From Thermoanaerobaculia bacterium (GTDB lineage Bacteria; Acidobacteriota; Thermoanaerobaculia; Thermoanaerobaculales; Sulfomarinibacteraceae), in the NCBI GenBank assembly GCA_027067575.1, contig JAMOVQ010000179.1:8885-72884 (forward strand): a stretch of DNA of 64,000 bases, written 5' to 3'. Made by a program: the position numbers and the translations under genes. How positions within the stretch are numbered: position 1 is the first letter of the stretch; each line of letters begins with the position of its first letter. The notes under the pieces were generated by a model, which saw only the letters and a list, made by a program, of their open reading frames with translations, was not told the origin of the DNA and searched no databases. Below are positions 25,860 through 58,946 of this stretch, piece after piece.

Positions 25860-27338
25860 TCAGGAACCCACGAGCATCCGGTTGGCCGCGCTCCGGGTCT
25901 CCCCGGCGGTGGAGACCCGGATGGCCGCGTGCTCACCGGCCGGGCACCGGTTCTCGCAGATCCCGCAGCCGACGCAACGCGCCGGATCGATCCGGGGGCG
26001 CTGCAGGCGAACGGCGTTCCCGTCCCTTCCGTGGTCGACGGCCTCCTCGAGCCAGATCGCCTTCGGGTCGGTGGGGCACATCTCCTCGCAGACGATGCAC
26101 GGGGTGGCCATGGCCCACGGGAGGCAGCGGCCCCGGTCGATGAACGCCGTGCCGATCCGGACCGGCGGATCATCATTCCGCCCGATCTTCTCGTCTGCGG
26201 TCAGCAGACGGATCGCCCCCGTGGGACACACCTCCCCGCACCGCGTGCAGGTGTACTCGCACCAGCCTCGGCGCATGTCGAGGACCGGCGTCCAGAACCC
26301 CTCGACGCCGACGCCCGAGAGGGCGGGCTGGATCGCCCCGGTGGGGCACGCCTGCTGGCACAGCATGCACTTGACGCAGCGGTCCAGGAACTCGTTCTCG
26401 GGAACGGAGCCGGGCGGGCGGATCGCCGTGGCGCTCCGGGCGGTGCGGCCCCCGCCAGAGGCCCGCAGAACGGGACCGAGCACGAGCCCCCCCGCCAGAG
26501 CGCCCAGCGCCCGTCTCCGGGAGAGGTCCGGGACGGCGGGCAACGGGGAGGGGGCGGAGGAGAACCCGTAGGAGAGCGCATGCTCGCCGCACCGGTCGAT
26601 GCACTCCAGGCAGACCATGCACTCCTCCACCCGGTGGTCCCCGAGCGGCTCGTCGGCCCCCTGGCAGTCCGTCACGCAGAGCAGACACCCGGTGCACCTG
26701 CCGTCGATCCGCCTGATCCGGAAGAGGGAGAACCGTGCGAGGAGCCCGAGCAGTGCTCCCAGCGGGCAGAACGCCCTGCAGAACAGCCGGGGGGTCCACA
26801 CGGAGGCGAGCACCACGGCCGCGAGCAGGGCGCCGGCGATCCAGCCACCGGGAACGGGCCCGCGCACGGGAAGGAGAGGCCAGACGGCGGCCGCCAGTCC
26901 GCGGGCGAGCAGGGAGAGCGGATCGAGGAGACCGGTCTGGAGGGAACCGAGAACGGCCCAGCCGGCGAGGAGCGCCAGGAGCACGTACTTCGTGCGGTAC
27001 AGCGGCCGCCAGCGGTTCCGGCCGGACCGCTCGCGGAGCCGCCTGGGCGTGCCCCATCGCGCCACCAGCTCCTGGAGCGTGCCGAGGGGGCAGATCCAGC
27101 CGCAGAAGATCCGGCCGCCGGCGAGCGTCAGGAGGACCACGGCGAGGGACAACCCCAGTGCGGTAGGAACGGCGTGGTGGGCCAGGGCGAGCCCGGCCGC
27201 GGTCAGCGGGTCCCCGTGGTGGAGGAGGTCGTACGGGAGCGTCCGGGGGTCTCCCGCCGCGAGGCGCTCGAGAAGCCAGAGGAGCAGCGCGAGGAAGGCA
27301 AGCTGGTAGAGCAGCCGGAGCCGTCGCCACCAGATCAT
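25860..27338 (-). CDS. Membrane polyferredoxin (NapH/MauN-like N-terminal half plus additional 4Fe-4S clusters)
   Basis: Start at MIWWRRLRLLYQLAFLALLL. It has several TM helices with the CGWICPLG and CRAFCPLG motifs. Cys clusters are CTGCLLCVTDC, CMVCLECIDRC, CVKCMLCQQACP, CTRCGEVCP, CIVCEEMCP and CVGCGICENRCP. Confidence 0.8.
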   Translation of the reverse strand: MIWWRRLRLLYQLAFLALLLWLLERLAAGDPRTLPYDLLHHGDPLTAAGLALAHHAVPTALGLSLAVVLLTLAGGRIFCGWICPLGTLQELVARWGTPRRLRERSGRNRWRPLYRTKYVLLALLAGWAVLGSLQTGLLDPLSLLARGLAAAVWPLLPVRGPVPGGWIAGALLAAVVLASVWTPRLFCRAFCPLGALLGLLARFSLFRIRRIDGRCTGCLLCVTDCQGADEPLGDHRVEECMVCLECIDRCGEHALSYGFSSAPSPLPAVPDLSRRRALGALAGGLVLGPVLRASGGGRTARSATAIRPPGSVPENEFLDRCVKCMLCQQACPTGAIQPALSGVGVEGFWTPVLDMRRGWCEYTCTRCGEVCPTGAIRLLTADEKIGRNDDPPVRIGTAFIDRGRCLPWAMATPCIVCEEMCPTDPKAIWLEEAVDHGRDGNAVRLQRPRIDPARCVGCGICENRCPAGEHAAIRVSTAGETRSAANRMLVGS

Positions 27339-28294
27339 GCGGTGCCGAGCTCCTCCAGCGAGGACGGGTCGCCGAGACCCAGCCCGAGCTTCTCGGCCTC
27401 GGCGATGAAGCCGAGCCGCCGGTGGTCGAGGCCGAGGAGGCTCGCGCCCCATGCGTCGAGCGCAACGGGGTCGGTTCCGGCCGCGACTGCGTCCACGCGC
27501 CGGACGTCGTCGAGGCTCCCGCCCTGGGGGCCGTTGGCCACGAGGATCCGGGTGGCGTCCACGACCGTCAGCGTCGGGCGGAAGGCGGCGCCCAGCTCGG
27601 CGATGGCCCGGTGGATCCCCTGGTGCAGCCGTGGGCGGCCGCCGCCGATCACGCCGAACCAGTTCTTCATCCCGAGGGTCGCCTTCGCCAGGCTGTGGTG
27701 CTTGACAACGGGCACGTTGATGACGCGGTCGGCCCGGGGCAGGAGCTCCATGACCTCGAGCCCCGCCAGAACGCCGGGCAGGTCGGCGGGACGGGTTCCC
27801 AGCGAGGGGGGGTAGACGATCGTGGCCCCGGCCTTCCTGGCGGCCGGCCCGATCCGGGACCGGGTGAAGCTCCGCCTGGGGTCGTTGCACGGGAAGTCGG
27901 CCACGACGACCCGGGCCGCACCCGCCTCCAGGCAGAGCCGGACGAGCTCGGCCACCACGTCCGGATCGGTGTTGGCCGCCTGCTCCGGCACCCGGTCCCA
28001 CCCGACGTTGGGCTTGATCAGGACCGTCTCGCCCCGGCCAGCGAACCGCTCCATCCCGCCGAGGGCCGCCACCGCCCGGCGGACGTTGGCCGCCGGGTCG
28101 GATCCGCGTGCGATGGCACCGGCACGTTGGCCTCCAGTCCTTCGCCAGTCGAAGATCCCGGGTGTGGCGGACCGCTCCCGCGGCCGCTCGCGGAGGACGT
28201 GGTAGAGCACTCCGAACCCGCCGGCCGCCAGGCCGGTCCGGGCGAGCCCCAGCAGGACCTGCCTCCGGTCACGGCCCGTCTCACGATCCGCCAC
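27335..28294 (-). CDS. DUF362 domain protein with twin-arginine signal
   Basis: The Tat-like motif is GRDRRQVLLGLARTGLAAGG. VLIKPNVGW...VVVADFP...INVPVVKHHSLAKATLGMKNWFG matches the DUF362 pattern. The start overlaps the polyferredoxin... upstream gene by 14 nt and its stop overlaps the next start by 4 nt. Confidence 0.75.
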   Translation of the reverse strand: MADRETGRDRRQVLLGLARTGLAAGGFGVLYHVLRERPRERSATPGIFDWRRTGGQRAGAIARGSDPAANVRRAVAALGGMERFAGRGETVLIKPNVGWDRVPEQAANTDPDVVAELVRLCLEAGAARVVVADFPCNDPRRSFTRSRIGPAARKAGATIVYPPSLGTRPADLPGVLAGLEVMELLPRADRVINVPVVKHHSLAKATLGMKNWFGVIGGGRPRLHQGIHRAIAELGAAFRPTLTVVDATRILVANGPQGGSLDDVRRVDAVAAGTDPVALDAWGASLLGLDHRRLGFIAEAEKLGLGLGDPSSLEELGTA

Positions 28295-28841
28295 GGGGTC
28301 CTCCGATCATCGCCGACCAGACTGCGGCGAGGCGCACCATGCGCGGGTCGATGCCGTCGCCGGGGGGCACGGCGAGAAGCCGCAGAAGCCATCGGCCCCG
28401 CACCATGACGAGCTCGCCCGGAGCGGCCACGGCGCCGGCTAGACCGTCCACCGGCGTGCCGTTCGCCGGCCGGAGGTCGGCCGCCGAAGCCGCGGCGCCG
28501 CCGGAGTCCTCGAAACCCATGGCAGCGGCCTCGATCTCGGTCTCCCCTCCGCCCTCTCCGGCGAACAGGTAGCGCGCTACCACGATCGTCCGGAGCCCAC
28601 GGGCGAGGTGGATCTCGGCTCCGCCGTCGAGGTATTCGTACACGCCATCGCCGCCGAACCGCGCGGGAGTGCTCCGCCCGGCGGCGTCCACGGCCGACGC
28701 GGAGGGGAGCACGGCCGACGCCGGACGGGCAGGTTGCGGCGTCCCCGGCGGTGGCGCGGAAGACCGGACGAGGATCCAGACGAGGAGTGCGATCAGGGGG
28801 ACCGCGGCCAGCACGGGACCGAGACGGCGCACGAAGTTCAC
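28281..28841 (-). CDS. Hypothetical membrane-anchored/exported protein
   Basis: GTG start at 28841 is assumed: VNFVRRLGPVLAAVPLIALLVWILV (anchor). No recognisable domain. It is the first gene of the DUF362/polyferredoxin operon. Confidence 0.45.
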   Translation of the reverse strand: MNFVRRLGPVLAAVPLIALLVWILVRSSAPPPGTPQPARPASAVLPSASAVDAAGRSTPARFGGDGVYEYLDGGAEIHLARGLRTIVVARYLFAGEGGGETEIEAAAMGFEDSGGAAASAADLRPANGTPVDGLAGAVAAPGELVMVRGRWLLRLLAVPPGDGIDPRMVRLAAVWSAMIGGPRGGS

Positions 28842-43583: not shown

Positions 43584-44726
43584 TTATCGCAGGGCGGCGC
43601 GGACGGCGTCCACGGCCGCGTCGATCGCCTCGGCCGTCAGGAACGGGCCGATCCCGGCGCGCACCGTCCCCGAAGGGAAGGTGCCCAGGCGGCGGTGGGC
43701 CGCCGGCGCGCAGTGCAGCCCCGGCCGGAGCATGACGCCGTGGTCCCGGTCGAGCCGGCCGGCCAGTTCCCCGGAGTCTGCGCCCTCTACGGTGAAGGAC
43801 ACTGTGGCCACGCGCGGCTCATCCTCCGTCCAGCCGTGAAGCCGGACGCCGGGGATGCCACGGAGCCCGTCCACGAGCCGGCGGACGAGGCCGAGGGTCC
43901 TCTCGTGGATCGTTGGGACACCCTCCCCGGCGAGCCACCGCACGGCCTCCCCCAGTCCCGCGAACCCCGCTGCGTTGGGCGTTCCCGCCTCGAGCCGGTC
44001 CGGGAGCCAGTCCGGCATCGCCTCCGACTCGGAGCGGGAGCCCGTCCCGCCACGGACCAGCGGCTCCAAGGTCTCCGCCAGCGCCTCCGACAGCAGCAGG
44101 ATGCCCGTTCCCGGCGGCCCGAGCAACCCCTTGTGCCCCGAGGCGACGAACGCCGCCAGGCCCGAGCGGCCGAAGTGGAACGGGACGCTCCCGGCGGTCT
44201 GGGCGCCGTCCGCCACCACCGGAACCGGGGCCACCGCCCGGGCGACGGCCTCCACGGGCAGCACCGCCCCCGAGACGTTGGAGGCGTGGGCGAGCACCAC
44301 GAGGCGGGTCCGCGTCTCCCCCACGGCCGCCGCGATCTCCTCCGGCTTCGGCACCCCCCACCGGTGGGCGGCCTCCACGACCCGGACCCCGATCCCGGCC
44401 GTGCGCTCCAGGTGCCGCAGCGGCCGCATCACCGCATTGTGCTCCAGCGCCGACACCACGACTCTGTCGCCCGTCCCCAGGATGCCCGCCAACACCGTGT
44501 TGATCCAGAACGTCGCACCTGGGCCGAGGAGCGTGCGCTCCGGATCGGCTCCCAGCAGGCTGGCCACCGCGTCGCGGCACCCCTCGACGGCCCTCGAGGC
44601 GGCCACGGTCAGGCGGTGCCCACCCCGGCCGGGGTTGCCCGCGGACTCGTCGAGGAACCGCGCCACCGCCCGGGAGACGCCGGGGGCCTTGGGGAACGAG
44701 GTGGCGGCGTGGTCCAGGTAGATCAC
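43584..44726 (-). CDS. Class V aminotransferase (cysteine desulfurase / selenocysteine lyase family)
   Basis: VIYLDHAATSFPKAPGV..., HASNVSG, and the PLP-Lys context SGHKGLLGPPGTG are present, with the C-terminal RPGLHCAP loop. The GTG start overlaps the yedF stop (GTGA). Confidence 0.85.
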   Translation of the reverse strand: MIYLDHAATSFPKAPGVSRAVARFLDESAGNPGRGGHRLTVAASRAVEGCRDAVASLLGADPERTLLGPGATFWINTVLAGILGTGDRVVVSALEHNAVMRPLRHLERTAGIGVRVVEAAHRWGVPKPEEIAAAVGETRTRLVVLAHASNVSGAVLPVEAVARAVAPVPVVADGAQTAGSVPFHFGRSGLAAFVASGHKGLLGPPGTGILLLSEALAETLEPLVRGGTGSRSESEAMPDWLPDRLEAGTPNAAGFAGLGEAVRWLAGEGVPTIHERTLGLVRRLVDGLRGIPGVRLHGWTEDEPRVATVSFTVEGADSGELAGRLDRDHGVMLRPGLHCAPAAHRRLGTFPSGTVRAGIGPFLTAEAIDAAVDAVRAALR

Positions 44727-45361
44727 GGGCGGACGATCCGGCCCGCCTCCGACAGCCGGGAGGCGATCTCGAGCATGTCCGATCCGCGGCCCACGGCCAG
44801 CTTCGGGGCCAGGCCGAAGAAGTTGAGGCACGTCCCACAGGCGATGATCTCCACGCCCGTCTCCTCCAGCACCCGGAGGTCGTCGAGCAGCGGGGAGCCC
44901 TCGCAGCACAGGCGGACACCCGCGTTGTAGAAGATGATCGCGTCCGGTGTCAGGTGCGGTTCGAGCTGACGCTGGGTCTTGAGGAACGAGCGCAGGAGGA
45001 GCGCTCCCAGCTCGTCATCGCCCCGGCCCATCCGGTCCCCGGTCACCTGGACGACCAGCGGCCTCCCCGGCGCCCGCTCCAGCCCCCCCTCCCCCGGGAG
45101 GGTGCACTCGAGCCCCTGGTCGCCCTCCGGCGGCGGTGCGACCGAGGCGTCCGAGGCCCGGACCGTCACCACCCAGCCGCCGCCCTCGAGAGGCTCGGCC
45201 TCCACATCGGCCTGGCGGGACGCGGCGAACCGCGTCACATTGGAGCGAGCCAGGTCGTCGGCGACCAGGACGCGGATCTCACGCTCCCCGGCCTCGAGCT
45301 GCTTGCGGACCTCCAGAACCGGTCCCGGACACGGCAGGTGTCGGACGTCGATCTCCCTCAC
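44723..45361 (-). CDS. yedF: YedF-type sulfurtransferase-like selenium metabolism protein (TusA-like plus DsrE-like domains)
   Basis: GTG 45361 is preceded by GGAGGGAGAT. VREIDVRHLPCPGPVLEVRKQL is the TusA CPxP motif. The C-terminal half (LVVQVTGDRMGRGDDELGALLLRSFLKT...IIFYNAGV...ACGTCLNFF) is DsrE/F-like. The remaining N-terminal 421 codons of the 633-aa track ORF are antisense to the next gene and are rejected. Confidence 0.8.
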   Translation of the reverse strand: MREIDVRHLPCPGPVLEVRKQLEAGEREIRVLVADDLARSNVTRFAASRQADVEAEPLEGGGWVVTVRASDASVAPPPEGDQGLECTLPGEGGLERAPGRPLVVQVTGDRMGRGDDELGALLLRSFLKTQRQLEPHLTPDAIIFYNAGVRLCCEGSPLLDDLRVLEETGVEIIACGTCLNFFGLAPKLAVGRGSDMLEIASRLSEAGRIVRP

Positions 45362-45485
45362 ATCTCCCTCCGGCGGGCATTCTATCCGAGCGGGTGCCGG
45401 TGGTGACGCCGGAGATCCGGGCTCCGTAGGAGGTGGGTGTAGAATGCTCGTCGCCGCCGGAAGCGGCGGCAGCAGGGAGGGTTCG

Positions 45486-46760
45486 ATGCGGAGAAGTTCG
45501 ATGCTCGTTCCGGTGATGGTTCTCGGCCTCGCGACCGGCGTCGCCGCCGCAGGCCAGCAGCAAGCCGCTCCCACCGCGACGAAGGCGCCGAGGCAGATGA
45601 TCCGGGTGGAGAAGGCCCACTTGGAGCTCGGCACATTCATCGCGGGCAGCGAGGTGGTCGGCACCTTCGTCTTCCACAACGACGGCGACCGGCCCGTCAA
45701 GATCGTCCGCGCCAAACCCACGTGAGGATGCACGGTGGCCGGGTACGACCCGGTGATCCCGGCAGGTGGGTCGGGAAAGCTCACGGCGAAGGTCAAGACC
45801 CATGCATCCCAGAGCGGGCATCTGACGAAGGTCGTTACGGTGACGACGGACGATCCTGTGGCCAAGACGATCCAGCTCAAGATGAGCTTCGACGTCAAGC
45901 CGGCGATCGAGGTCAAGCCGGAGGCCAGACCGCAGCTCGAGGCCATCGAGGGAGGCACGGCGTCGAAGACGCTGGTGCTGCACCGTGTCGATGGCAAGCC
46001 GCTCGAGGTGACGCGCATCGACACCGGCAGCCCGAAGCTGCTCACGGTCACGTCCCGTCCGGCAACGAAGAAGGACCGGAAGCTCGGCGCGGTGGAGGGC
46101 GACGTCGTCCTCGAGATCCGGAGCAAGGAGCTCTCGGGGTTCACCCAGCGCACCCAGATCCTGACCCTCCACACGAACCACCCCAAGCTCGAGACGATGC
46201 GGCTCCCCGTCAGGATCCGCGTGAAGCCCGTGATCGCCGCCATGCCGGCGCAGGTCCGGCTGTGGGCCCCGGCGGGCGAGGAAGCGCGTGACCTGGTCTC
46301 CGTTGTCACGGTCCTGAGTAACACGGGGAAGCCGTTCACCATCACCGCGGTGGAGAGCTCGCACCCGGACGTGGTCACCGCTGAAGTGAAGGGCAAGGGT
46401 TCTGCGACGCGGCACACCATCGCGTTGCACGTGCCGGCGAAGGTCGTCTCGGGCATCGGCCTCGGAACCAAGCGGGCAACGCTGACGATCCGGACCGATA
46501 ACGCCAGGAAACCGGTGCTGGAGGTTCCCGTCCTCATCGCCCGCCGGAGGAAGCCGAAACGGTTCCCCGGCGCCGTTCCGATCCACGGGGCCCGGTCGCT
46601 GCCGGGCACGCCCAAGGACCTCATCCTCGAGCCGAAGGGACGGGAACACCTCCGGCTCGTGCCCGAGGCGCAGGTCGGGAAGCCGGCCAGTCAGCAGCCC
46701 GCTCCGACGGCCGCGCCGTCCGGGAAGGTTCCGGCGAGCGGCGGGGAACAGGGCGAATAA
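45486..46760 (+). CDS. Exported DUF1573-repeat protein with in-frame TGA (45723-45725) read as selenocysteine: candidate selenoprotein with U-G-C motif
   Basis: ATG 45486 has SD AGGGAGGG and a signal peptide MRRSSMLVPVMVLGLATGVAAAG. Track ORFs ending at 45725 and starting at 45735 are in the same frame. The junction reads FVFHNDGDRPVKIVRAKPT-TGA-GCTVAGYDPVIPAGGSGKLTAKV, which is the DUF1573 xCGCT pattern with TGA in place of the first Cys. Two further Ig-like DUF1573-type domains follow. Confidence 0.7.
45734..45758 (+). promoter_or_regulatory. Candidate bacterial SECIS-like hairpin downstream of the in-frame UGA
   Basis: The core stem CCGGGU/ACCCGG (45739-45744 / 45748-45753) has an ACG apical loop. 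It is extendable with G:U pairs and a mismatch to 45734-45758. It starts 11-16 nt after the UGA. It was not scored with any SECIS model. Confidence 0.4.
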
Positions 46761-46802: not shown

Positions 46803-47966
46803 ATGAGCGGTGAGATGGGTGGCAGCATGGCGCGGGAGGCCGGACAATCGGCCTCCCGGCCCCTCGAGGCAATCACGCCCGTCGAGATCTTCGATCACCT
46901 CAAGAAGGGGGTGCTCGGACAGGACGGGGCGCTGCGGTACGTCTCCGTGGCGGTGTACAAGCACGTCACGGGGAAGGTCCCCGGCAACATCCTCCTGATC
47001 GGCAGCTCCGGTACGGGCAAGACGACGATCATGAACAACATCCAGCGCCTGTACCAGGAGGTGCCGGAGTACCTGCCGTTCCGGGCGATGACGATCATCA
47101 ACGCCAACCTGCTCGTGGACGCCGACCGTCTGGAGTTCCGGCCGGACCGGCTCATGGCCGCCGTGGAGCAGCGGGCCCGGGCGCTCCTCGGCGGCCGCGC
47201 CACGGCCGAGGAGCTGCGGCAGGCCATGGAGCGGGCCACCATCTGCATCGACGAGGTGGACAAGATGTCCTCCGTCGTGGCGGGCAAGCCGAACCCGCTC
47301 GGTGTGGTGCTCCAGCAGGGGCTCCTGACCCTGATGGAGGGCGAGCACGTGGCCTACCGCACCCACGCCGTCACCGACGACGGCGAGGAGAAGCCCGTCA
47401 CCCTCGACCTCGACACCGGCCACATGATGTTCATCTGCGGCGGTGCCTTCGAGGAGTTGTACGACCAGGTCTACCTCCGGGTCACCAAGCCCGGCAGCGG
47501 TGAGCGGCTCAAGAGCCATGCCATCCAGACCGCCGACGGCCAGGTCCGCATCGAGGAGCGGTTCTCCCTGGCCGACTTCCTCAAGATCGAGGACCTGTTC
47601 GAGTACGGCATGGTCCCCCAGTTCATCGCGCGGTTCGACAACATCGTCCTGCTCAACGACCTGACCGTCGACGTCCTCAAGGCGATCCTGCTGAAGTCGT
47701 ACGACTCCCCGTTCATCCGCTCGCGCCGGTACTTCGACGTGATGGGGATCGACCTCGAGATCGAGGACCTCGCCGCCGCCCTGATCGCCGAGGCCGCGGA
47801 GAAGCACTCCCGGACCGGCGCCCGGGCGCTCCGGACGATCTTCGGCAAGATCGTCAACCGGCTCGAGTTCGACCCCGAGGGCAGCAACCGCCTCGAAGAA
47901 GGTGAGGACGGCCGCAAGCGCCTCCGCATCACCGCCGACATGGTCCGCCGGGTCACCGCCGCCTGA
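46803..47966 (+). CDS. ClpX-like AAA+ ATPase lacking N-terminal zinc finger, GYVG pore loop and IGF loop
   Basis: ITPVEIFDHLKKGVLGQDGALRYVSVAVYKH, Walker A GSSGTGKT, Walker B ICIDEVDKM, LQQGLLTLMEG, MFICGGAF, MVPQFIARF and sensor-2 TGARALRTI are all colinear with ClpX. The GYVGEDVE and IGFG positions are replaced. Confidence 0.8.
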   Translation: MSGEMGGSMAREAGQSASRPLEAITPVEIFDHLKKGVLGQDGALRYVSVAVYKHVTGKVPGNILLIGSSGTGKTTIMNNIQRLYQEVPEYLPFRAMTIINANLLVDADRLEFRPDRLMAAVEQRARALLGGRATAEELRQAMERATICIDEVDKMSSVVAGKPNPLGVVLQQGLLTLMEGEHVAYRTHAVTDDGEEKPVTLDLDTGHMMFICGGAFEELYDQVYLRVTKPGSGERLKSHAIQTADGQVRIEERFSLADFLKIEDLFEYGMVPQFIARFDNIVLLNDLTVDVLKAILLKSYDSPFIRSRRYFDVMGIDLEIEDLAAALIAEAAEKHSRTGARALRTIFGKIVNRLEFDPEGSNRLEEGEDGRKRLRITADMVRRVTAA

Positions 47967-50900: not shown

Positions 50901-50929
50901 GGGCGGGGCTCAGGCCCCGCCCTTTCTCG
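50901..50929 (+). terminator. Intrinsic terminator after phasin; the hairpin loop contains the ccmF stop codon
   Basis: GGGCGGGGC-TCAG-GCCCCGCCC (50901-50922) is followed by TTTCTCG. The convergent ccmF ends with TGA at 50912-50910, inside the loop. Confidence 0.6.
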
Positions 50930-53489
50930 TCGTCCCTCGCCCCTCCCCCGTCGGGATGGGAACGACCGCCAGGTCCCGACGCCGGAGCAGGAGCGCCATG
51001 AAGATCCCGATGGTCGTCAGAATCGTGCCGATCCAGACGAGGCCGATCAGCGGCTTGACCGAAACGTCCAGCACGAGGCTCGGCGGAGCCAGCGGCCTCG
51101 GCCGAAGACGCGGATCGAACAGCCGGACCTCGACCCTGCCGTTCTCGGCATCGATCCGTCCGATATCGAGCGTCATGCCCCCGGCACCCGGGATCGCCGC
51201 AGGGGCGACCTCGGTGGTCCCGTCGGGCCGTTCATGGACCGACGCCACCACCTGGACGGTCTCGCCGTCCCGGACCACCGCGAACGGCACCCGGAGCTGG
51301 ACGTTGCCCGTCTCGTGCGCGCCGGCCATCTCGAACCCCTCGAACCGGACGGTGAGATCCCCGTAACGGAACGACTCGCCCTTCGCCAGCGTCACATCCC
51401 GGGCGATCCCACCCCCGAGCCCCAACAACTCGAGCCGAACGAGCCCCCGGGAGGCGTCCATGCCACCGATCCGGATCGCCCCCCCCGGCGTGCCGGGGAT
51501 CGGCACGGGCACCGGGGTGGCGCCGCCCTCGGAGGAGACGACGGACGGCTCGAGCCGCACGGGCTGCTCCCCAGGCCGCTCGAGGGTGACCACGACGCCC
51601 ACGGTGAACGCGCCGGGCACCGCGTGCTGGGAGGAGAGGTCGAACCCCTCGAAGGTCAGCTTCCAGTCGCGGAACGTCCCCGTCTCGCCCTTGGCGAGCA
51701 CGAGGCGCCCGCTGACCGGAGCGTCCTCGCCCGGATCGTACTGCTCGGGGGCGAGGTAGAGGTCGTGGGTGAAGAACCCCTCGATGTCCGGGTTGGCGAC
51801 GAGCTGATTGGTCTTCTCGTTGACCCACATCAACGGACGCATGGTCAGGTTCTTCCCCGACGGTGTCCGGACGTCCACCACCATGGCGTCGTGGGCGTCC
51901 GGCGTCGGGCGGTCGATCCCCTTGAACGTCATGGTGTACCCCATGACGTCCACGGCCTCTCCCTCGGGAAGCCGGACCTTCTCGCTCCGGTCGAAAACCC
52001 CGGAGACGAGGAAGGCGAGGATCATGACACCGACCCCCACATGGGACAGGTAGCCGCCCGCGGCGGCCAACCGGCCTCGCCGGAGGGTACGAATCACCGC
52101 CCAGACGTTCGCAAGAATGGAGAACGCGGCCGTCCCGATGTAGAGCAGGTTGAGCCACCCGTGGGCACCGAGAGCCGCCGCAGCGCCCGTGGCCGCCAGG
52201 GAGAGGCCGATGACGACGGCCAGCTTCCGGCCCGCGCCCTCTCGCGCCCGCTGCCACCCGAGGAACGGGATGATCCCAAGCCCCACGGAGAAGAGGATCG
52301 CCAGGGGAAGACCCACCGTGTTGTAGAAGTCCGGACCGACCTGGGCCGGCTTCTCCATCCACAGCCGCGTAATCAGCGGAGCCGACGTTCCGATGAGTAC
52401 CATCAGCCCCGTCCCGACGAGTACGATCACCCCGAGGACGAAGAAGACGGTCCGGGAAAGGAACGGCTCGTCACCGGTCTCTGTGGGGATCTCCCGCCAC
52501 CGCCAGACCAGCAGCCCGACGGAGACCAGGAGGAAGAAGGCCATGTTGAACACGAGCCAGCCGGTGATCCCGAGATCGACGAACGAGTGGACGGAGAAGT
52601 TCGCCAGAACACCGGAACGTGTCAGGAACGTGGCGTAGACCACGAGGAGGTACGAGAAGATCGCCAGCACCAGATTGAGCCGCCGGAACCGGTGCTTCCC
52701 CCGTTGGAGCACGAGGCCGTGCGCCAGCGCCGCGGTGGCGAGCCAGGGAACGAGCGAGGCGTTCTCCACGGGATCCCACCCCCAGTACCCGCCCCACCCC
52801 AGCGTCTCGTACGACCAGTAGCCGCCGAGCATGATGGCGGCCCCCAGCGTCAGGAGCGACAGCAGAACCCACGGCAACGAGACCCGGGCCCAGTCGTCGT
52901 ACCGCCGCATCCAGAGGGCGGCGAGGGCGAAGGCGAACGGCACCGCAAGACAGGCGTAGCCGAGGAACATGACGGGGGGATGGATGACCATCCACGGGTT
53001 CTGGAGCAGCGGGTTGAGCCCGTTGCCGTCGAGGGGGACCATCGACGCCGTCAACCCCTGGTGGAACCGGAACGGGTCCTGCTTGACCAGGAGGAGCACG
53101 AGCGAGAGCAACGTCAGGTTGTAGAAGAACATCACCCGCGGCTCGTAGTCGCGGGCGAACCGCATCAGCGGCAGGCCGAGCACGGCGGCCCAGAAGACCC
53201 ACAGCAGGAAGGATCCTTCCTGCCCTGCCCAGAACGCGGAGATCAGGAAGTGCAGTGGAAGCGAGTTGTCGGTGTACGCCGTGACGTAGAACACCCGGTA
53301 GTCGTGGGTCAGCAGCAGGTACATCAGCACGGCGGACGCCACGACGACTGCGGCGGTCATCAACACGTAGGTCTGGCGTGCGAGCCGCCGCCACCCCTCG
53401 TCCCCCCGGATCGCCAGGGCGTAGCAGACGGTGGAGGCCAGACCGAGGAGGAAGGCTCCCCAGATCAGGATGGTTCCCGGATAGTACAT
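50910..53489 (-). CDS. ccmF: Cytochrome c-type biogenesis protein CcmF (heme lyase), long form with extended C-terminal periplasmic region
   Basis: It is multi-TM with the WWD motif WGGYWGWDPVENASLVPWL. The 859-aa length includes an internally repeated beta-rich C-terminal segment and a final TM helix. Confidence 0.9.
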   Translation of the reverse strand: MYYPGTILIWGAFLLGLASTVCYALAIRGDEGWRRLARQTYVLMTAAVVVASAVLMYLLLTHDYRVFYVTAYTDNSLPLHFLISAFWAGQEGSFLLWVFWAAVLGLPLMRFARDYEPRVMFFYNLTLLSLVLLLVKQDPFRFHQGLTASMVPLDGNGLNPLLQNPWMVIHPPVMFLGYACLAVPFAFALAALWMRRYDDWARVSLPWVLLSLLTLGAAIMLGGYWSYETLGWGGYWGWDPVENASLVPWLATAALAHGLVLQRGKHRFRRLNLVLAIFSYLLVVYATFLTRSGVLANFSVHSFVDLGITGWLVFNMAFFLLVSVGLLVWRWREIPTETGDEPFLSRTVFFVLGVIVLVGTGLMVLIGTSAPLITRLWMEKPAQVGPDFYNTVGLPLAILFSVGLGIIPFLGWQRAREGAGRKLAVVIGLSLAATGAAAALGAHGWLNLLYIGTAAFSILANVWAVIRTLRRGRLAAAGGYLSHVGVGVMILAFLVSGVFDRSEKVRLPEGEAVDVMGYTMTFKGIDRPTPDAHDAMVVDVRTPSGKNLTMRPLMWVNEKTNQLVANPDIEGFFTHDLYLAPEQYDPGEDAPVSGRLVLAKGETGTFRDWKLTFEGFDLSSQHAVPGAFTVGVVVTLERPGEQPVRLEPSVVSSEGGATPVPVPIPGTPGGAIRIGGMDASRGLVRLELLGLGGGIARDVTLAKGESFRYGDLTVRFEGFEMAGAHETGNVQLRVPFAVVRDGETVQVVASVHERPDGTTEVAPAAIPGAGGMTLDIGRIDAENGRVEVRLFDPRLRPRPLAPPSLVLDVSVKPLIGLVWIGTILTTIGIFMALLLRRRDLAVVPIPTGEGRGTTRKGGA

Positions 53490-53547
53490 GCGTTCTTCCC
53501 TTTCCTGAATCGCTCGGATGGTGGTGCGAGACGCTGGACGTCACCGG

Positions 53548-53952
53548 TCAGGACGACGGCGTCGTCTCGAGTCCCTGGTACTTCGACGGGCACTTGACGA
53601 GGAGCTGCCCGGCCTCGAAGGCGCCATCGCCGTAGCTCCCCACCGCGACCACCTGCTTCGCCTCCTCGAAGTTCCCCGGTTTCGGCCCGTGGTACCGCAC
53701 GAGCATCGTCCGGCCTTCAGGATCCTTCATGAGGAACTCGAGCTGCCGGCTCGCTTCGACGTACCGTGCGCTCCCCTGGACGAGCTCACCGGCGACCTGG
53801 ACACGGGTCGCCCTGGCCTCCTTCGCCTGCTCGAACCCGACGTACGGTGTGATGTTCTTCCGGAACGAGGTCGCGCCGAAGGCGACGAACCCCGCGATCG
53901 CCACCCCTCCGATGACGTACCAGAGACGCCGTTGCCGTACCGGATCGCTCAT
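53548..53952 (-). CDS. ccmE: Heme chaperone CcmE, Cys-type variant (CxxxY instead of HxxxY)
   Basis: Start MSDPVRQRRLWYVIGGVAIAGFVAF (anchor), followed by an OB-fold body. The heme-binding position reads LLVKCPSKYQG. Confidence 0.85.
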   Translation of the reverse strand: MSDPVRQRRLWYVIGGVAIAGFVAFGATSFRKNITPYVGFEQAKEARATRVQVAGELVQGSARYVEASRQLEFLMKDPEGRTMLVRYHGPKPGNFEEAKQVVAVGSYGDGAFEAGQLLVKCPSKYQGLETTPSS

Positions 53953-54275
53953 GGTCCCTCCAGCCGCCGGACCTTCCGGTCCAGCCCGAAGACGTACAGG
54001 AACAGACCGAGCCAGATGATCAGGGTCACACCCATGACGGCCATCAGGCCCGAGCTCCCGCCACCGTCCGAAACAGCGGACGATGCCGCTACATTCCCGG
54101 CGGGATCGGGGGCCGGCGCCTCCACTTCGATGGCCGGCGCCAGGTCCGGACCACCGCTGTCCCGAGGTACGGCCGCCCGTGTTGCACCCCCCTGAGCCCG
54201 TACCACCGCGGCCGGGCCGCCTGCCAGAAGGAACGCAGCCACCAGGCACCAGCAGAGAACCGTTCTCTTCGTCAT
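53949..54275 (-). CDS. ccmD: Small membrane protein at the ccmD position (CcmD-like C-terminal helix)
   Basis: There are ATGA overlaps with ccmC upstream and ccmE downstream. The N-terminus is signal-like (MTKRTVLCWCLVAAFLLAGG) and the C-terminal TM is MAVMGVTLIIWLGLFLYVFGLDRKVRRLE. It is longer than the classical CcmD. Confidence 0.5.
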   Translation of the reverse strand: MTKRTVLCWCLVAAFLLAGGPAAVVRAQGGATRAAVPRDSGGPDLAPAIEVEAPAPDPAGNVAASSAVSDGGGSSGLMAVMGVTLIIWLGLFLYVFGLDRKVRRLEGP

Positions 54276-54943
54276 CACAGAATCTCCTCTTCCGCCTTGC
54301 GGCGCAGGGCCTCGATCCGGCACTCGAGATCGTACAGCCAGGCCGCGAGACCGGTGAATCCGGCGAGGGATGCCATGAAGACCCGGAACATCCGTGAGTC
54401 CATCGTGATCCGGCCCTTCGTGTTGATGATCGTGTCGGGGTGGAGCGACCAGTAGATCCGCGGGACCACGAACACGAGGAACGGGACCGTCACGAACGCC
54501 AGGATCGCGTACACGGCCGCGAGCGCCGCCTTCCGTTCCGGATCGGGAACCGCCCCGCGAAGCGCGAAGTACGCCGCGTAGATCAGCAGCAGGAAGGTGA
54601 TGGAGGTCTCCCGCGGGTCCCAGTTCCAGTAGGAGCCCCACATGATCCGCGCGAAGATCGAACCCGTCACCGTCGCCAGGATCGTGAAGACGATCCCCAG
54701 GGATGCGCTCGCGTGGGCCCGGACGTCCCAGCGCGGGTCCCGCGTCCGCAGGTACTGGACCGAGGCGATGAACGAGACCAGGAACGAGAGCGTGGCCACC
54801 CAGGCCGTGGGGACGTGGAAGAACACGATCCTGGAGGACTGGCCCAGGAACCCCGCCGCCGCCGGCGCCCACAGGAACGCCGCCCAGATGACGGCGGCCA
54901 TCCACAGAAAGAGCGCCCCGAGCAGGATGTCTCGCCTAGTCAT
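54275..54943 (-). CDS. ccmC: Heme exporter protein CcmC
   Basis: The WWD motif is MWGSYWNWDPRETS. Conserved His contexts are FFHVP and SLHP. Confidence 0.9.
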   Translation of the reverse strand: MTRRDILLGALFLWMAAVIWAAFLWAPAAAGFLGQSSRIVFFHVPTAWVATLSFLVSFIASVQYLRTRDPRWDVRAHASASLGIVFTILATVTGSIFARIMWGSYWNWDPRETSITFLLLIYAAYFALRGAVPDPERKAALAAVYAILAFVTVPFLVFVVPRIYWSLHPDTIINTKGRITMDSRMFRVFMASLAGFTGLAAWLYDLECRIEALRRKAEEEIL

Positions 54944-55616
54944 GCCACACCACCGGAAACAGGAACGCCGAAGCAACGGTCATCACACCTCCCAGGGACA
55001 CCACCGCCCGCAGCGCAGCGAGGACGTCGGGCACCCTCCCCTCGATCGCGGCCCGCGTTCCCTGGATGAGGAACACGAGGAGCGGGAGGAGAAGCGGTAC
55101 CGAGAGCACCGCGAACAGCGCTCCTCGACTCATCGCCCGCGCCACGATCGCTGCGACGATGGTGGTCGTCACCGCCAGCGCCAGGCAGCCGGCGGCCAGC
55201 ACGAGTATGAACCATCCCGGAGTCCGGACCGACAGTCCCATCAGCACCACGTACAACGGCACGAGGATCGCCATGAGCAGCGCCAGGGTCACGGTATTGA
55301 AAAGGAGCTTGCCGCCCCAGACGACGAGGGGACGCGCCGCGAGCCGCAGCAGAGGCGCCGTGTGGGTCTCCTCCTCCTTGACGAACGAGCGGTCGAGCCC
55401 GGCCATGGCGGCAAAGAAGACGACGATCCACAAGAGCGCCCCAAGCAGGTACGGCCGGTCCGCCTCGGCGATCCCGTACGGCCCGATGGTGTAGGAGACC
55501 GCGGCCAGCGTGGTCACCGCGAACAGCGCCAGGGAGTTGAACGCCACACGGGTCCGGAACTCGCACCGCATGTCCTTGGCGAACACGGCCATGGTCTCAC
55601 CCAGGAAGCGCCACAC
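54936..55616 (-). CDS. ccmB: Heme exporter membrane protein CcmB
   Basis: It has six hydrophobic segments and sits between ccmA and ccmC. An alternative start is at 55592 (MAVFAKDM). Confidence 0.85.
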   Translation of the reverse strand: MWRFLGETMAVFAKDMRCEFRTRVAFNSLALFAVTTLAAVSYTIGPYGIAEADRPYLLGALLWIVVFFAAMAGLDRSFVKEEETHTAPLLRLAARPLVVWGGKLLFNTVTLALLMAILVPLYVVLMGLSVRTPGWFILVLAAGCLALAVTTTIVAAIVARAMSRGALFAVLSVPLLLPLLVFLIQGTRAAIEGRVPDVLAALRAVVSLGGVMTVASAFLFPVVWHD

Positions 55617-56235
55617 GGTCCGTCCCCCACGTCATCTCGTCCCGGTCGTTCGTCGCCACCACCACGGTGCGGCCCTCCTCCGCCATCCCCCGGACGAACT
55701 CCGCGAGCCAGTCCTGCCCGTCGGGATCCAGGTTGGCGCCGGGCTCGTCGAGCAACAGGACGTCCGGGTCGTGAAGTACCGCCTGCGCGAGCTTCAGGCG
55801 CTGCTGCATCCCCGTGGAGAACCCTCCCACCACCGTCGGCCTGTCCGGATCGAGCCCCACCGCCACGAGACCGTTCCTCAGCCGGTCCCCGTCCACCTCC
55901 AGCCCCCGCACGCGGGCGCAGAACTCCAGGTTCTCCATCGCGGTCAGCTCCTCGTACAGCGCGAGGGCCGGGGCCGCCATCCCGATCCGGTGCCGCCATT
56001 CCTCCCTGGGCACCTCGCCGTCCCCGTCGAGGTAGCGGACCTCTCCCCGCGTCGGCCGGATCAGCCCGGCGAGGATCTGGAGCAGCGTCGACTTGCCGGA
56101 GCCGTTCGGCCCCGTCAGCACGAGGATCGATCCAGGCCGCGCCTGGCCCGCGATCCCCCGCATGACGACCCGTCTTCCGAACCGCTTGCCGATGCCCTCG
56201 AACCGGATCGTGACCCCTCTCCGCACCGGGCACAC
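55597..56235 (-). CDS. ccmA: Heme exporter ATP-binding protein CcmA
   Basis: Walker A is GPNGSGKST, the ABC signature is FSTGMQQRL, and Walker B is LLLDEP. Confidence 0.85.
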   Translation of the reverse strand: MCPVRRGVTIRFEGIGKRFGRRVVMRGIAGQARPGSILVLTGPNGSGKSTLLQILAGLIRPTRGEVRYLDGDGEVPREEWRHRIGMAAPALALYEELTAMENLEFCARVRGLEVDGDRLRNGLVAVGLDPDRPTVVGGFSTGMQQRLKLAQAVLHDPDVLLLDEPGANLDPDGQDWLAEFVRGMAEEGRTVVVATNDRDEMTWGTDRVALPG

Positions 56236-56260
56236 CTTACCATGCCCGGCCCCTCCCGGA

Positions 56261-57328
56261 TCACTTCCCGCCTGAACCCGCCGTCCCGTCCTCGGCCGTC
56301 AATCCGAGCCGCCGCATCTTCTTGAACAGACCGGCCCGCGTCAGACCCAGCCGCTCCGCCGCCCGTTGCCGGTGGCCTCCGACCTCGGCGAGAACCCTCG
56401 TGATGAACGCCCGTTCGAACCCGGCCACGGCATCGGCCAGAGTCACCCCGGGGAACTGCCCGGACTGGGACGCCGCGTCCACTTCCCCGTTCCCGTTGCC
56501 AGCCTCTGTCCGGGTCTTCCGTTCCAGCACGATCCCCAGAGCCGCTCTGAGCGCCCTGATCTCCACATCTGCCGGGACGACCCGGGCGAGATCCAGCACG
56601 AGCAGGTGGTTGGCTCCAACGGTCACGAGCCGGGTGGACTCGCCCACGGCGACCTCCCCGGGGAACGACTCTCCAGGCCCTGCAGGACTCCCGACTCCCT
56701 CTAGGAGCTTCTCGAGCCTCCCCCCCTGGAGCAGACGGCCGGTGTTCCCCGCACTGGCCACAACCCCGAGGGAGCCGGCTCTCTCCCGGACGATCACGAG
56801 AGCTCCCCGCACCTCGAGCCGCTGGACGGCCCATTCGAGAACGGGAACGGCTCCCCCGCCCCTGCATCCTTCCGCGATGTGCTCCATCAGCTCCACGATC
56901 TCGGCAAGGCCGAGACCCGACTGGTGGTGCACCGTCTCCTCGGAACGCTGCTCATCCCCGCCCCCCACCTGCTGTTCCCGAGTGGGGGTAGCCCTGTCGG
57001 GACTGTCGGGAACCGCTCCGAACGTGCCGGAGCTCATCTCCACCACCACGAACCTCGCCGAGGAGAGCATGACGGGATCGCCGCACCGGAAGGTCGCCGT
57101 GGTCACCCGTCGGCCATCGATCCACGTCCCGTTCTTGCTGTCCAGATCGACGATTCGGAGGGAGCCGGGGCCGACGGCCAGCTTCGCATGCCGGCGCGAG
57201 ACGTCCGGCTGTGGAAGGACGATGTCGTTGTCCTCCCTGGAGCCGATGGCGTACACCTTCCCCGGCTCCAGCTCGTGCCACTGTTCACCAAGCTCCGGAT
57301 GGTTGTAGACGAGAACGAGCCGTTTCAC
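56261..57328 (-). CDS. FHA domain / GAF-like middle domain / Fis-type HTH regulator
   Basis: FHA motifs are YAIGSREDNDIVLPQPDVSRRHAKL...DLDSKNGTWIDGRRV. The C-terminal HTH_8 is FERAFITRVLAEVGGHRQRAAERLGLTRAGLFKKMRRLGL. No AAA+ sigma54-activation domain is present. Confidence 0.75.
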   Translation of the reverse strand: MKRLVLVYNHPELGEQWHELEPGKVYAIGSREDNDIVLPQPDVSRRHAKLAVGPGSLRIVDLDSKNGTWIDGRRVTTATFRCGDPVMLSSARFVVVEMSSGTFGAVPDSPDRATPTREQQVGGGDEQRSEETVHHQSGLGLAEIVELMEHIAEGCRGGGAVPVLEWAVQRLEVRGALVIVRERAGSLGVVASAGNTGRLLQGGRLEKLLEGVGSPAGPGESFPGEVAVGESTRLVTVGANHLLVLDLARVVPADVEIRALRAALGIVLERKTRTEAGNGNGEVDAASQSGQFPGVTLADAVAGFERAFITRVLAEVGGHRQRAAERLGLTRAGLFKKMRRLGLTAEDGTAGSGGK

Positions 57329-57337
57329 CGTACCTCC

Positions 57338-58018
57338 TCAGGCCACCCGGTCGGCCCGGATCACCATGTAGCCGGAAAGGGACCCCGGAACGAACCGGAA
57401 ATGGAGCCGCGCGAGATCCCGGCGGACCTCCACCACGGCCGCGTCTCCGTTCACAGTCCTGAAACTCCGGCTCGCCTTGCGAAGCACACGCGCCCTGACC
57501 CCGAGGGAAACCTCCTCGATCGTCGCGAGATCATCGAGAAGCAGGACGATCCGGAGCGGAGCTTCGAGATCCAGTGCGAGCTCGAGGAAGGTCGTGTCCA
57601 GCGCCTCCACCAGTTCGTCCAGTGTCAGGCCCCGCTGGCCCCAGAGACCGACCGGTTCCATCGCAAGGACTGCAAGCCCTCGCTTGACAGCGTCCCGGCA
57701 GACCGCCAGGACGCTCCTCCGTACGTCACCCGGCCGGCAGCTCGGCGTGTGCTCGAGGTCGTGGACAACCGCCTGGTAGAGCCAATGGCGACGCCCCCCC
57801 CGAGGCCGCAGTAGCAGGTACCGGCCCTGGGGCAACGGCCGATGGTGCGCGATGGCCATGTAGGCCGAGTCGAGATCGTTCGCCGCATCGAGGTCGAGGA
57901 ACGGTGGAGCGCTCAGTACGAGGTTTCGATCCTCCTGGACGATCAGTGCGTCCGGCTCGAGCCGCCGCTCCATCGCGTCGCGAAGGTCCAGGTCGAAGCG
58001 CAGTACCGGCTGGCTCAC
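57338..58018 (-). CDS. Hypothetical protein
   Basis: GTG start at 58018 is assumed. The codon usage looks coding (strong GC3). No motif was recognised. The stop lies 10 nt upstream of the FHA gene start. Confidence 0.4.
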   Translation of the reverse strand: MSQPVLRFDLDLRDAMERRLEPDALIVQEDRNLVLSAPPFLDLDAANDLDSAYMAIAHHRPLPQGRYLLLRPRGGRRHWLYQAVVHDLEHTPSCRPGDVRRSVLAVCRDAVKRGLAVLAMEPVGLWGQRGLTLDELVEALDTTFLELALDLEAPLRIVLLLDDLATIEEVSLGVRARVLRKASRSFRTVNGDAAVVEVRRDLARLHFRFVPGSLSGYMVIRADRVA

Positions 58019-58097
58019 GCATCCAGTGTACCGCACTGCCCCGGAGCCAGACGAGTGCCCCCGCCTGTCACTCGAGCAGCCGTCCACCCATCTTTCC

Positions 58098-58946
58098 TCA
58101 CCCGCGTCCTCCCGTGCGGCGTTCCGGATCGCGGCCCCCGAGCTCCAGGCAGCGGCGGTACGCCGCCCAGACGGCGTCCGAGAGCACCGTGCGGAGACGG
58201 CCCCTCTCGAGCTGGTAGAGCGCCTCGGCCGTGGTTCCACCCGGCGAGGTCACCTGGTTGCGCATCCGCGCCACGTGCTCCGGCGCCTCCACGGCGTACT
58301 CCGCCGCCCCGAGGACCGTCTGCCGGACGAGCCGGGCGGCCACCCGACGTGAGAAGCCGAGGTGTACGCCAGCCTCGATCAGCGCCTCCATGAACAGGAA
58401 GACGTACGCGGGACCGGTTCCCGAGAGCGCCGTCGCCATGTCGATCTCCTCCTCGTGATCGACCCGCTCCTCCTCCCCCAGCGCCGAGAGCATGGTCCGG
58501 ACCCGCTCCCGTTCCGGCCCGCCGACGGCGTCCGTCGCCGTCCACACCGACATGCCGTGGCCGATCTGGGCAGGGGTGTTCGGCATCACCCGGACCACCC
58601 GCGACACACCGAGCGCCTCACCGATCCGGCCCATGGTCGTACCGGCCACGATGCTCACCACTGTCGAACCGGACGCCACCGCCCCGTCGAGACTCCCGAG
58701 GACCTCACCCAGCCGTTGCGGCTTCACCGCGAGCACGACGATGGTCGAGCCACGGGCCGCCTCCGCGTTGTCGGCCGTGACCGCGATCCCGTAGCGCTCG
58801 GCCAGCTCCTCCCTGCGCTCTTCCCGGGGGTGGCTCGCGACGATCCGGGCCGGAGGAAGGAGGTCGTGCCGCAGCAGCCCCTTCACCATCGCCTCGCCCA
58901 TGGTCCCGCACCCGATGAACGCGACCTGCTCGTTCCGCAACGCCAT
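58098..58946 (-). CDS. proC: Pyrroline-5-carboxylate reductase
   Basis: VAFIGCGTMGEAM (Rossmann), RVMPNTPAQIG, GSGPAY-type (SGTGPAYVF) and SPGGTT are present. Confidence 0.9.
   Translation of the reverse strand: MALRNEQVAFIGCGTMGEAMVKGLLRHDLLPPARIVASHPREERREELAERYGIAVTADNAEAARGSTIVVLAVKPQRLGEVLGSLDGAVASGSTVVSIVAGTTMGRIGEALGVSRVVRVMPNTPAQIGHGMSVWTATDAVGGPERERVRTMLSALGEEERVDHEEEIDMATALSGTGPAYVFLFMEALIEAGVHLGFSRRVAARLVRQTVLGAAEYAVEAPEHVARMRNQVTSPGGTTAEALYQLERGRLRTVLSDAVWAAYRRCLELGGRDPERRTGGRG

Follow-up and report, generated by a model that had tools for sequence, protein, structure and literature searches.

A mis-annotated DUF1573 gene of Thermoanaerobaculia and the probable decoding of its internal UGA as selenocysteine

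Proteins with a DUF1573 domain have a place among the described bacterial selenoproteins. The family was named OS_HP2 in a 2007 study of the symbionts of Olavius algarvensis, its original members coming from deltaproteobacterial symbionts (PMC1976440). The 2008 table of the Global Ocean Sampling selenoproteome lists it as OS_HP2, pfam07610, with a UxC motif and 354 cysteine (Cys) homologues (PMC2398784), and reviews of 2022 and 2026 list a 'DUF1573 domain-containing protein, UGC' (PMC9312934, PMC13188914); CAB1076174.1 and MDJ0815992.1 are published example sequences. Here we describe a gene of this kind at positions 45486-46760 of a 64-kb stretch of DNA from a Thermoanaerobaculia bacterium (contig JAMOVQ010000179.1, of about 81 kb), the whole of which is called the window below. 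The gene is interrupted by an in-frame TGA at 45723, which is very probably decoded as selenocysteine (Sec) through a SECIS (selenocysteine insertion sequence), with positions 45486-46760 forming a single gene for a protein predicted to be exported.

How does this gene compare with the published family? It shares with OS_HP2 the Pfam domain, the position of Sec, the UGC motif and an abundance of Cys-form homologues, and in its UxC (UGC) motif Sec takes the place of the first Cys in the CGC of DUF1573. Of the NCBIfam models only one matches the protein (residues 45-137): NF041425, 'OS_HP2 family (seleno)protein'. What differs is the host, since the genomes retrieved here belong to Thermoanaerobaculia (Acidobacteriota) rather than to deltaproteobacterial symbionts. 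We conclude that the window gene is a new, mis-annotated member of a published selenoprotein family, and represents neither a new family nor a new mechanism. A preliminary description of this DNA had implied that DUF1573 selenoproteins were novel; that claim fails because DUF1573/OS_HP2 proteins with a UxC motif have been published as selenoproteins since 2007-2008. What is new is more modest: a mis-annotated clade, diverged from NF041425, in Thermoanaerobaculia-type Acidobacteriota, with a tandem-hairpin SECIS.

The interrupted reading frame and its relatives

Direct reading and translation of the plus-strand frame from ATG 45486 to TAA 46758-46760 give one interruption only, the TGA at 45723-45725, which is followed immediately by GGA TGC ACG. 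Read through, the frame yields a product of 424 codons with Sec as residue 80 (...VKIVRAKPT-[TGA]-GCTVAGYDPVIPAGGSGK...). A mechanical list of open reading frames (ORFs) has it as two pieces, one ending at 45725 and the other starting at GTG 45735 and coding for 341 amino acids, and public records likewise annotate the locus as a stub of 80 residues plus a 'hypothetical protein' of 341. When the stop is replaced by Cys, the translated protein matches PF07610 at 56.6 bits (cut-off 26.1) over profile positions 2-94 of 98. This match runs across the TGA, which therefore lies in the middle of a single domain. The window has a GC content of 70%, and TGA serves as an ordinary stop for most of its genes, so the genetic code is not reassigned. 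The features of the gene are as follows.

45475..45481, plus strand: Shine-Dalgarno-like purine run, GGGAGG over 45475-45480 with one more G at 45481, about 4 nt 5' of ATG 45486
45486..46760, plus strand: complete coding sequence of the predicted selenoprotein, 424 codons including Sec80; read directly, with orthologues co-linear over the whole length
45486..45551, plus strand: predicted Sec-type (Sec export pathway) signal peptide MRRSSMLVPVMVLGLATGVAAA, with charged, hydrophobic and A-x-A regions recognised by eye
45603..45884, plus strand: DUF1573 (PF07610) immunoglobulin-like (Ig-like) domain by Pfam, residues 40-133, holding the U-G-C-T motif
45723..45725, plus strand: UGA, predicted to be read as Sec, residue 80; TGA in the window and in all 62 related loci
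45729..45731, plus strand: TGC for Cys82, which is paired with Sec80 in U-G-C, by direct reading
45891..46535, plus strand: second and third Ig-like β-sandwich domains, about residues 136-350, from alignment to the homologue P0016 and its AlphaFold model
46536..46757, plus strand: variable Pro/Gly/Lys-rich tail, 3' of the third domain

A search with the read-through protein gave 34 matches, which fall into two kinds. The closest 15, P0001-P0015, have lengths of 285-341 residues, carry no Pfam domain and correspond only to the part 3' of the TGA; they are truncated gene calls. P0001 is the 341-residue call, again with no Pfam domain. The more distant matches P0016-P0032 are full-length proteins of 322-407 residues, with a signal peptide, DUF1573 and two further domains. 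The column of the TGA holds Cys in all 15 Cys-form homologues, within the motif (S/T/A)-C-G-C-T, and the Cys-form genes at loci L069 and L070 have TGC or TGT there. This is the classical Sec/Cys pair. The column of Cys82 is Cys in 5/5 sequences of one alignment (A1) and in at least 90% of another that includes the Cys-form homologues (A3).

The contigs of close matches were fetched and genome and metagenome collections were scanned by pattern, giving 62 related loci from assemblies in ENA, JGI, NCBI and Logan and from many different samples. All 62 have TGA at the same column, with TGC in none and TGT in none. The 64-nt segment that begins at the TGA occurs in 47 distinct sequences among the window and these loci, every one of them with TGA, even though protein identity among the TGA loci is as low as about 32% for the C-terminal part (tblastn) and 34% across the complete protein (L005). 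Those genomes that are named are metagenome-assembled genomes of Thermoanaerobaculia or Thermoanaerobaculales (Acidobacteriota). On contigs of sufficient length, the read-through frames stay co-linear all the way from the signal peptide to the C-terminus, and neither a further stop nor a frameshift occurs. Around the TGA, codon positions 1 and 2 are conserved on both sides while position 3 varies, implying purifying selection on the whole translated frame. The conserved TGA, the co-linear frames and the codon pattern together therefore exclude, for practical purposes, a sequencing error, a pseudogene and a pair of separate genes. The preliminary description had taken the two pieces for one gene with UGA recoded at the first Cys of a C-G-C motif; the domain match, the Cys homologues and the uniform TGA of the relatives bear it out.

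At the N-terminus, the Shine-Dalgarno-like run is unchanged in the two closest relatives, and equivalent n-, h- and c-regions are seen in orthologues of all clades and in the Cys homologues, in keeping with the good ribosome-binding site and the export signal that had been proposed for ATG 45486. The signal peptide would be cleaved after A-A-A (MRRSSMLVPVMVLGLATGVAAA/GQQ). No Cys follows the predicted signal peptide, so the protein is not a lipoprotein. The structure was modelled on the Cys homologue P0016, for which the AlphaFold model (mean pLDDT 89.3) has three consecutive β-sandwich domains, with C-G-C in a loop between two strands of domain 1. The window protein would thus comprise a signal peptide and three Ig-like β-sandwich domains, the first of them DUF1573, with U-G-C in an inter-strand loop of that domain. 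A Foldseek comparison of the P0016 model with the PDB returned arrays of HYDIN/ASH-type Ig-like domains and 2qsv, and a sequence search of the PDB returned only 2qsv, an uncharacterised protein of P. gingivalis.

A tandem-hairpin element downstream of the UGA

Directly 3' of the UGA the coding sequence can form two adjacent hairpins, both identified by pairing across the 47 distinct sequences.

45738..45754, plus strand: hairpin 1, GCCGGG-UACGA-CCCGGU, 6-bp stem and 5-nt loop
45758..45775, plus strand: hairpin 2, CCCGGC-AGGUGG-GUCGGG, 6-bp stem and 6-nt G-rich loop

Hairpin 1 begins 12 nt after the UGA (free energy -12.7 kcal/mol) and hairpin 2 begins 3 nt past hairpin 1 (-11.7 kcal/mol), so that the two together span 12-53 nt after the UGA. 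A GC-rich hairpin had already been noted here in the preliminary description. That hairpin is real, but it makes up only the first half of the conserved element, and it is the second hairpin that carries a GGU-type loop. No further copies of hairpin 2 occur in the window at up to 3 mismatches.

Over the 47 sequences, 98.9% of cells are paired, a figure that drops to 19-51% once the 3' partners are shifted by 1-3 columns. Hairpin 1 is paired in 100% of its cells. At its pair 20-28, 42 sequences have A-U and 5 have G-C, a single compensatory change that requires two coordinated amino-acid replacements (Glu/Ser versus Gly/Pro), and wobble changes are seen at pair 16-32 (G-U or A-U) and pair 18-30 (C-G or U-G). 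The lower 4 bp of hairpin 2 are nearly invariant, the sole exception being an A-C at pair 39-50 in L030; its other variation is confined to the loop (AGGUGG, UGGUCA, AGGUGA, AGGCGG) and the two closing pairs. In L030 itself (L030:3124-3187), four changes (CCCACCCGGCGGGUCGGG) disrupt the usual register of hairpin 2, and an alternative stem of 7 bp with a bulged C and a GGC triloop can form, so that the hairpin appears to have been rebuilt rather than lost.

The strongest evidence for a SECIS is the constraint on synonymous sites. The fraction of the majority base at third codon positions is 0.95 from +15 to +56, compared with 0.61 over the ten codons 5' of the TGA and 0.50 over the eleven codons past +57. 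The Cys-form genes L069 and L070 provide a natural control: their DNA is 71% and 67% GC and they encode the identical peptide IPAGGSGK, yet both lack the two hairpins. Their codons are ATC CCC GCC GG[T/C] GGC AGC GGC AAG, whereas the Sec forms use ATC CCG GCA GGT GGG TCG GGA AAG. Since the same peptide is spelled with other codons in the Cys forms, neither conservation of the protein nor codon bias accounts for the conservation of the hairpin nucleotides. Third positions, pairing and the Cys-form control thus agree that the hairpin region is constrained at the RNA level.

On these features it is very probable that a SECIS of two adjacent hairpins, lying within the coding sequence, directs the insertion of Sec at UGA 45723. 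By the standard bacterial mechanism, the element would recruit SelB·GTP·Sec-tRNASec to a ribosome with UGA in its A site. From the sequence we infer both this SelB-dependent decoding and export of the product by the Sec pathway.

The published rules for bacterial SECIS elements ask for an apical loop of 3-9 nt, an upper stem of 4-16 bp and a free energy of at most -7.5 kcal/mol, and, in the same hairpin, for a G within loop positions 1-2 together with a distance of 16-37 nt from UGA to apical loop (PMC13188914). The size and energy of both hairpins fall within these limits. Hairpin 1 has a suitable spacing of 18 nt between UGA and loop, but G is absent from positions 1-2 of its loops (UACGA, UUCGA, CAUGA and others). 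In hairpin 2 the AGGUGG loop does carry G at position 2, and this loop lies 38 nt from the UGA, or 37 nt if the closing C-G pair is open. As in canonical elements of the fdhF type, there is a stable stem-loop inside the coding sequence, directly 3' of the UGA, with a G-rich loop (in hairpin 2); the differences are that two tandem hairpins stand in place of one, and that the hairpin with the canonical loop lies 1 nt beyond the 16-37 nt range. The loop of the Escherichia coli fdhF SECIS is AGGUCU, to which the AGGUGG of hairpin 2 looks similar. On these sequence features, the conserved element is best described as a putative tandem-hairpin variant of the SECIS, at the edge of the consensus rules.

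A bolder proposal is that the tandem element represents a distinct class of SECIS, in which the SelB-binding, GGU-type loop of hairpin 2 lies outside the accepted 16-37 nt and a covarying spacer, hairpin 1, folded where the mRNA channel opens, moves that loop into range. We regard this as doubtful and put it forward only tentatively. If it were true, rule-based searches for SECIS elements would miss others of its kind, which could explain why more than 60 exported DUF1573 selenoproteins are annotated as split hypothetical genes. The nearly invariant 42-nt element and its natural Cys-form controls make a handy test case for the distance of the SECIS loop from the UGA.

Several results weigh against the decoding of UGA 45723 as Sec. 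Neither hairpin satisfies all of the PMC13188914 rules by itself. The covariation is thin, consisting of one two-sided pair change that may reflect only one or two events. Taken as a single sequence, the 68 nt after the UGA fold no more stably than shuffled versions (z = -0.33), although in DNA of 70% GC fold stability alone is uninformative, and the case has therefore been built on comparative data. Rfam has no SECIS match, either in the whole window at gathering thresholds or in 45600-45900 at E<=10, and reports only one tRNA-Ala. ARAGORN finds no tRNA-Sec, neither in the window nor among 20 related loci, and tRNA-Ala is the only window tRNA by ARAGORN and Rfam alike. No SelA, SelB or SelD is present among the composition-supported ORFs of the window, all of which were read and 14 of which were scanned with NCBIfam. 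The structure search leads only to generic Ig-like arrays and gives no catalytic lead. Finally, the window protein scores 79.9 bits against NF041425, below its cut-off of 100. Five Sec-form relatives that were tested behave in the same way (62-81 bits against the same cut-off), the Cys homologues P0023 and P0026 exceed it at about 115 bits, and by the curated threshold the Sec-form proteins are therefore a diverged sister group and not members of NF041425.

The U-G-C site and rival explanations

What might the U-G-C pair do? By analogy with disulfide exchange at CXC motifs, it could serve as a periplasmic redox centre of the selenenylsulfide/selenol-thiol kind, which we see as the most likely role, at about even odds. 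The proposal follows from the classification of the motif as UxC by those who described the family, together with the known behaviour of CXC motifs. Woycechowsky and Raines are reported to have described a CXC (CGC) motif in 2003 as a functional mimic of protein disulfide isomerase. The window protein is similar in that two residues capable of redox chemistry stand on either side of a single Gly, in a loop that is exposed, and the protein is predicted to be exported; the likeness is one of motif only, and the thioredoxin fold is absent.

Other selenoproteins offer partial parallels. The DsbA- and DsbG-like families (PMC2398784) also pair Sec with a nearby Cys. They share with formate dehydrogenase-N/O and [NiFeSe] hydrogenase the combination of a Sec protein and an N-terminal export signal, as is found here. 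The formate dehydrogenase-N/O and [NiFeSe] hydrogenase subunits are periplasmic. The window protein differs from all of these in its Ig-like β-sandwich, which is not thioredoxin-like, in having no cofactor-binding domain, and in a signal peptide that looks Sec-type and not Tat-type. One Cys-form homologue, P0026 (529 residues, from an NCBI contig of 328 kb), has the same three Ig-like domains followed by a C-terminal ResA/thioredoxin-like domain. That domain has WNPIA instead of WCxxC and looks redox-dead, and the fusion was set aside as support for a redox role.

The alternative that survives best accepts the protein as a true selenoprotein but has U-G-C, instead of catalysing redox reactions, bind a metalloid or a soft metal (Cu, Hg, As or Se), perhaps in selenium trafficking together with YedF and an aminotransferase encoded next to it. 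Vicinal CXC pairs can chelate soft metals. Several of the listed prokaryotic selenoprotein families handle metals, among them MerP-like proteins and metal-transporting ATPases (PMC2398784), and yedF and a cysteine-desulfurase-like gene adjoin the selenoprotein gene in the window, L001 and L003. Against this, the other 60 loci lack the linkage. Both YedF and the aminotransferase would be cytoplasmic, having no signal peptide, whereas the selenoprotein is predicted to be exported. Those who curate the family, moreover, class UxC among motifs of the redox type (PMC2398784). We therefore consider metal binding possible but rather less likely than redox chemistry, although gene context does not decide between the two.

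Much less probable is that a tRNASec-like opal suppressor, either a tRNACys of the selC* type or an allo-tRNA of the Acidobacteria type, places Cys or Ser at the SECIS-marked UGA. The idea has a basis in PMC5389517, where the selC* tRNACys mimics tRNASec and may be an opal suppressor, and where allo-tRNAs, possible nonsense suppressors, are described in Acidobacteria, the related loci here being from Acidobacteriota (Thermoanaerobaculia); the failure to find tRNA-Sec in the window or the 20 related loci, or Sec machinery in the window, would also fit it. In the same source, however, selC* genes are found in Firmicutes, Thermodesulfobacteria, Nitrospirae and Proteobacteria, and not in Acidobacteria. 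The gene is adjoined by a YedF equivalog, and the DUF1573/OS_HP2 family has been published as containing Sec. Moreover, UGA has been kept in more than 60 lineages without mutating to TGC, for which an advantage of Sec is the simplest explanation.

A pseudogene, or a gene split by a nonsense mutation with both halves dead or only the 341-residue downstream ORF expressed, is highly improbable. Public gene callers do give an 80-residue stub and a 341-residue protein, and no Sec machinery was found in the 64-kb window. Against this stand the TGA at the same column in 62/62 loci with no other stops or frameshifts, protein conservation on both sides of it, and the RNA element conserved at synonymous sites directly 3' of it. 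The downstream ORF would in addition start in the middle of a domain and without a signal peptide, as the preliminary description had rightly objected. An error of sequencing or assembly, with TGC or TGT misread as TGA, is possible a priori but can be dismissed in view of 47 distinct segment sequences from many samples and four repositories, all with TGA. Sec thus remains by far the most probable residue at UGA 45723.

Neighbouring genes and annotation

Three neighbours of the selenoprotein gene in the window are of particular relevance.

43584..44726, minus strand: class V aminotransferase of the cysteine-desulfurase family, 380 residues (PF00266, 236 bits)
44723..45361, minus strand: yedF, divergent, GTG start at 45361, with TusA-like and DsrE-like domains (TIGR03527; Pfam TusA and DsrE)
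46803..47966, plus strand: ClpX-like AAA+ ATPase, 387 residues, 43 nt downstream (PF07724 and ClpX models, below cut-off)

YedF matches TIGR03527 over its full length at 170.1 bits (cut-off 110). To our knowledge, NCBI describes the YedF family as confined to genomes that contain selD, and the gene next door thus lends indirect support to the presence of Sec machinery. The GTG start of the aminotransferase overlaps the yedF stop (GTGA) and was set by the 380-residue calls in L001 and L003. The enzyme falls below both curated cut-offs, with 262 against 525 bits for SclA (NF040779) and 341 against 377 bits for TIGR01977, so that only its membership of the class V aminotransferase/cysteine desulfurase family is established. 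The preliminary description had linked both divergent neighbours to selenium handling. Both genes do adjoin the selenoprotein gene, but outside the window they do so only in the two closest relatives, L001 and L003, and the linkage is not a conserved trait of the family.

Between yedF and the selenoprotein gene lies a divergent intergenic region of 124 nt (45362-45485; L001:4957-5094, L003:2677-2801), whose conservation across the three closest relatives is 86%. Within it are an invariant GGGTGTAGAATGC, with a -10-like TAGAAT at about 45441-45446, and, just upstream of the ribosome-binding site, a hairpin GCCGCCG-GAAG-CGGCGGC at about 45453-45470. The two genes may share a promoter or regulatory region here.

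The neighbour conserved most widely is the ClpX-like ATPase; its match to the ClpX model of 418 positions starts at position 55. The ATPase gene lies directly downstream in about 15 loci (L001-L009, L011, L016, L019, L047, L060; for example L002:11037-12191, L005:2139-3305, L009:11304-12455), with identities of 68-96% compared with 34-86% for the selenoprotein. Among the neighbours of the related loci, no partner gene common to all clades was seen. In a clade without the AAA neighbour, 16 loci have instead a protein of about 260-300 residues with 4Fe-4S motifs encoded directly upstream of the selenoprotein gene. This protein has two ferredoxin-type 4Fe-4S motifs and a C-terminal Cys-rich domain (...MEVPCCSGL...); its gene is on the same strand, 0.3-1.25 kb upstream of the TGA (L010, L013, L014, L017, L021, L023, L031, L034, L035, L043 and others), and in many cases a LarA-like (DUF2088) gene and a cupin come before it.

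In relatives the AAA ATPase is followed directly by a conserved 226-residue protein with no family match and then by an FHA-domain regulator (L002:12442-14990, L005:3528-6085), which in L002, L005 and L007 combines FHA with a sigma-54 activator. In the window the counterpart pair is found at a distance of about 9 kb and in the opposite orientation (56261-58249, minus strand). It comprises 57341-58249, again with no family match, and 56264-57337, which has an N-terminal FHA domain and, by eye, an HTH-like C-terminus, without the sigma-54 AAA module. The displacement of this homologous pair implies an inversion or insertion that brought in genes for SCP2, a wax-ester synthase, a phasin and cytochrome c maturation (ccm).

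The cytochrome c maturation cluster (50910-56298, minus strand) lies 4 kb from the selenoprotein gene and was recognised by eye from a CcmA-like ABC ATPase, CcmB-like and CcmC-like proteins and a large CcmF/ResB-like membrane protein. In L002, L004 and L007 a c-type cytochrome gene stands two genes upstream of the selenoprotein gene. It is conceivable that the U-G-C protein might be linked to the periplasmic thiol redox chemistry of cytochrome maturation. Elsewhere in the window, and unrelated to the selenoprotein, a NapH/NapG-like polyferredoxin membrane protein (25863-27302, minus strand) adjoins a DUF362-type protein (27338-28306, minus strand), whose only NCBIfam match is a weak one to the Npun_F2552 family (63 bits, cut-off 500).

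A composition-filtered scan of the window for other recoded TGAs upheld no candidate; the filter missed the TGA at 45723, and the scan is hence not exhaustive. The TGA at 57338-57340 (minus strand) was rejected as lying between two ordinary genes, with GGAGG and a GTG start after it, and that at 1387-1389 (minus strand) as having a separate small gene begin after it. Two more candidates, at 9917 and 48711, proved to be antisense artefacts.

These results bear chiefly on how the family is annotated. The window gene and at least 62 relatives are publicly split into an 80-residue stub and a domainless 'hypothetical protein', and the NCBI model for OS_HP2 misses them. A lower cut-off for NF041425, or a clade-specific model combined with the conserved SECIS sequence, would remedy this. 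The corrected annotation would extend the DUF1573 selenoproteins to Thermoanaerobaculia-type Acidobacteriota from sediments.

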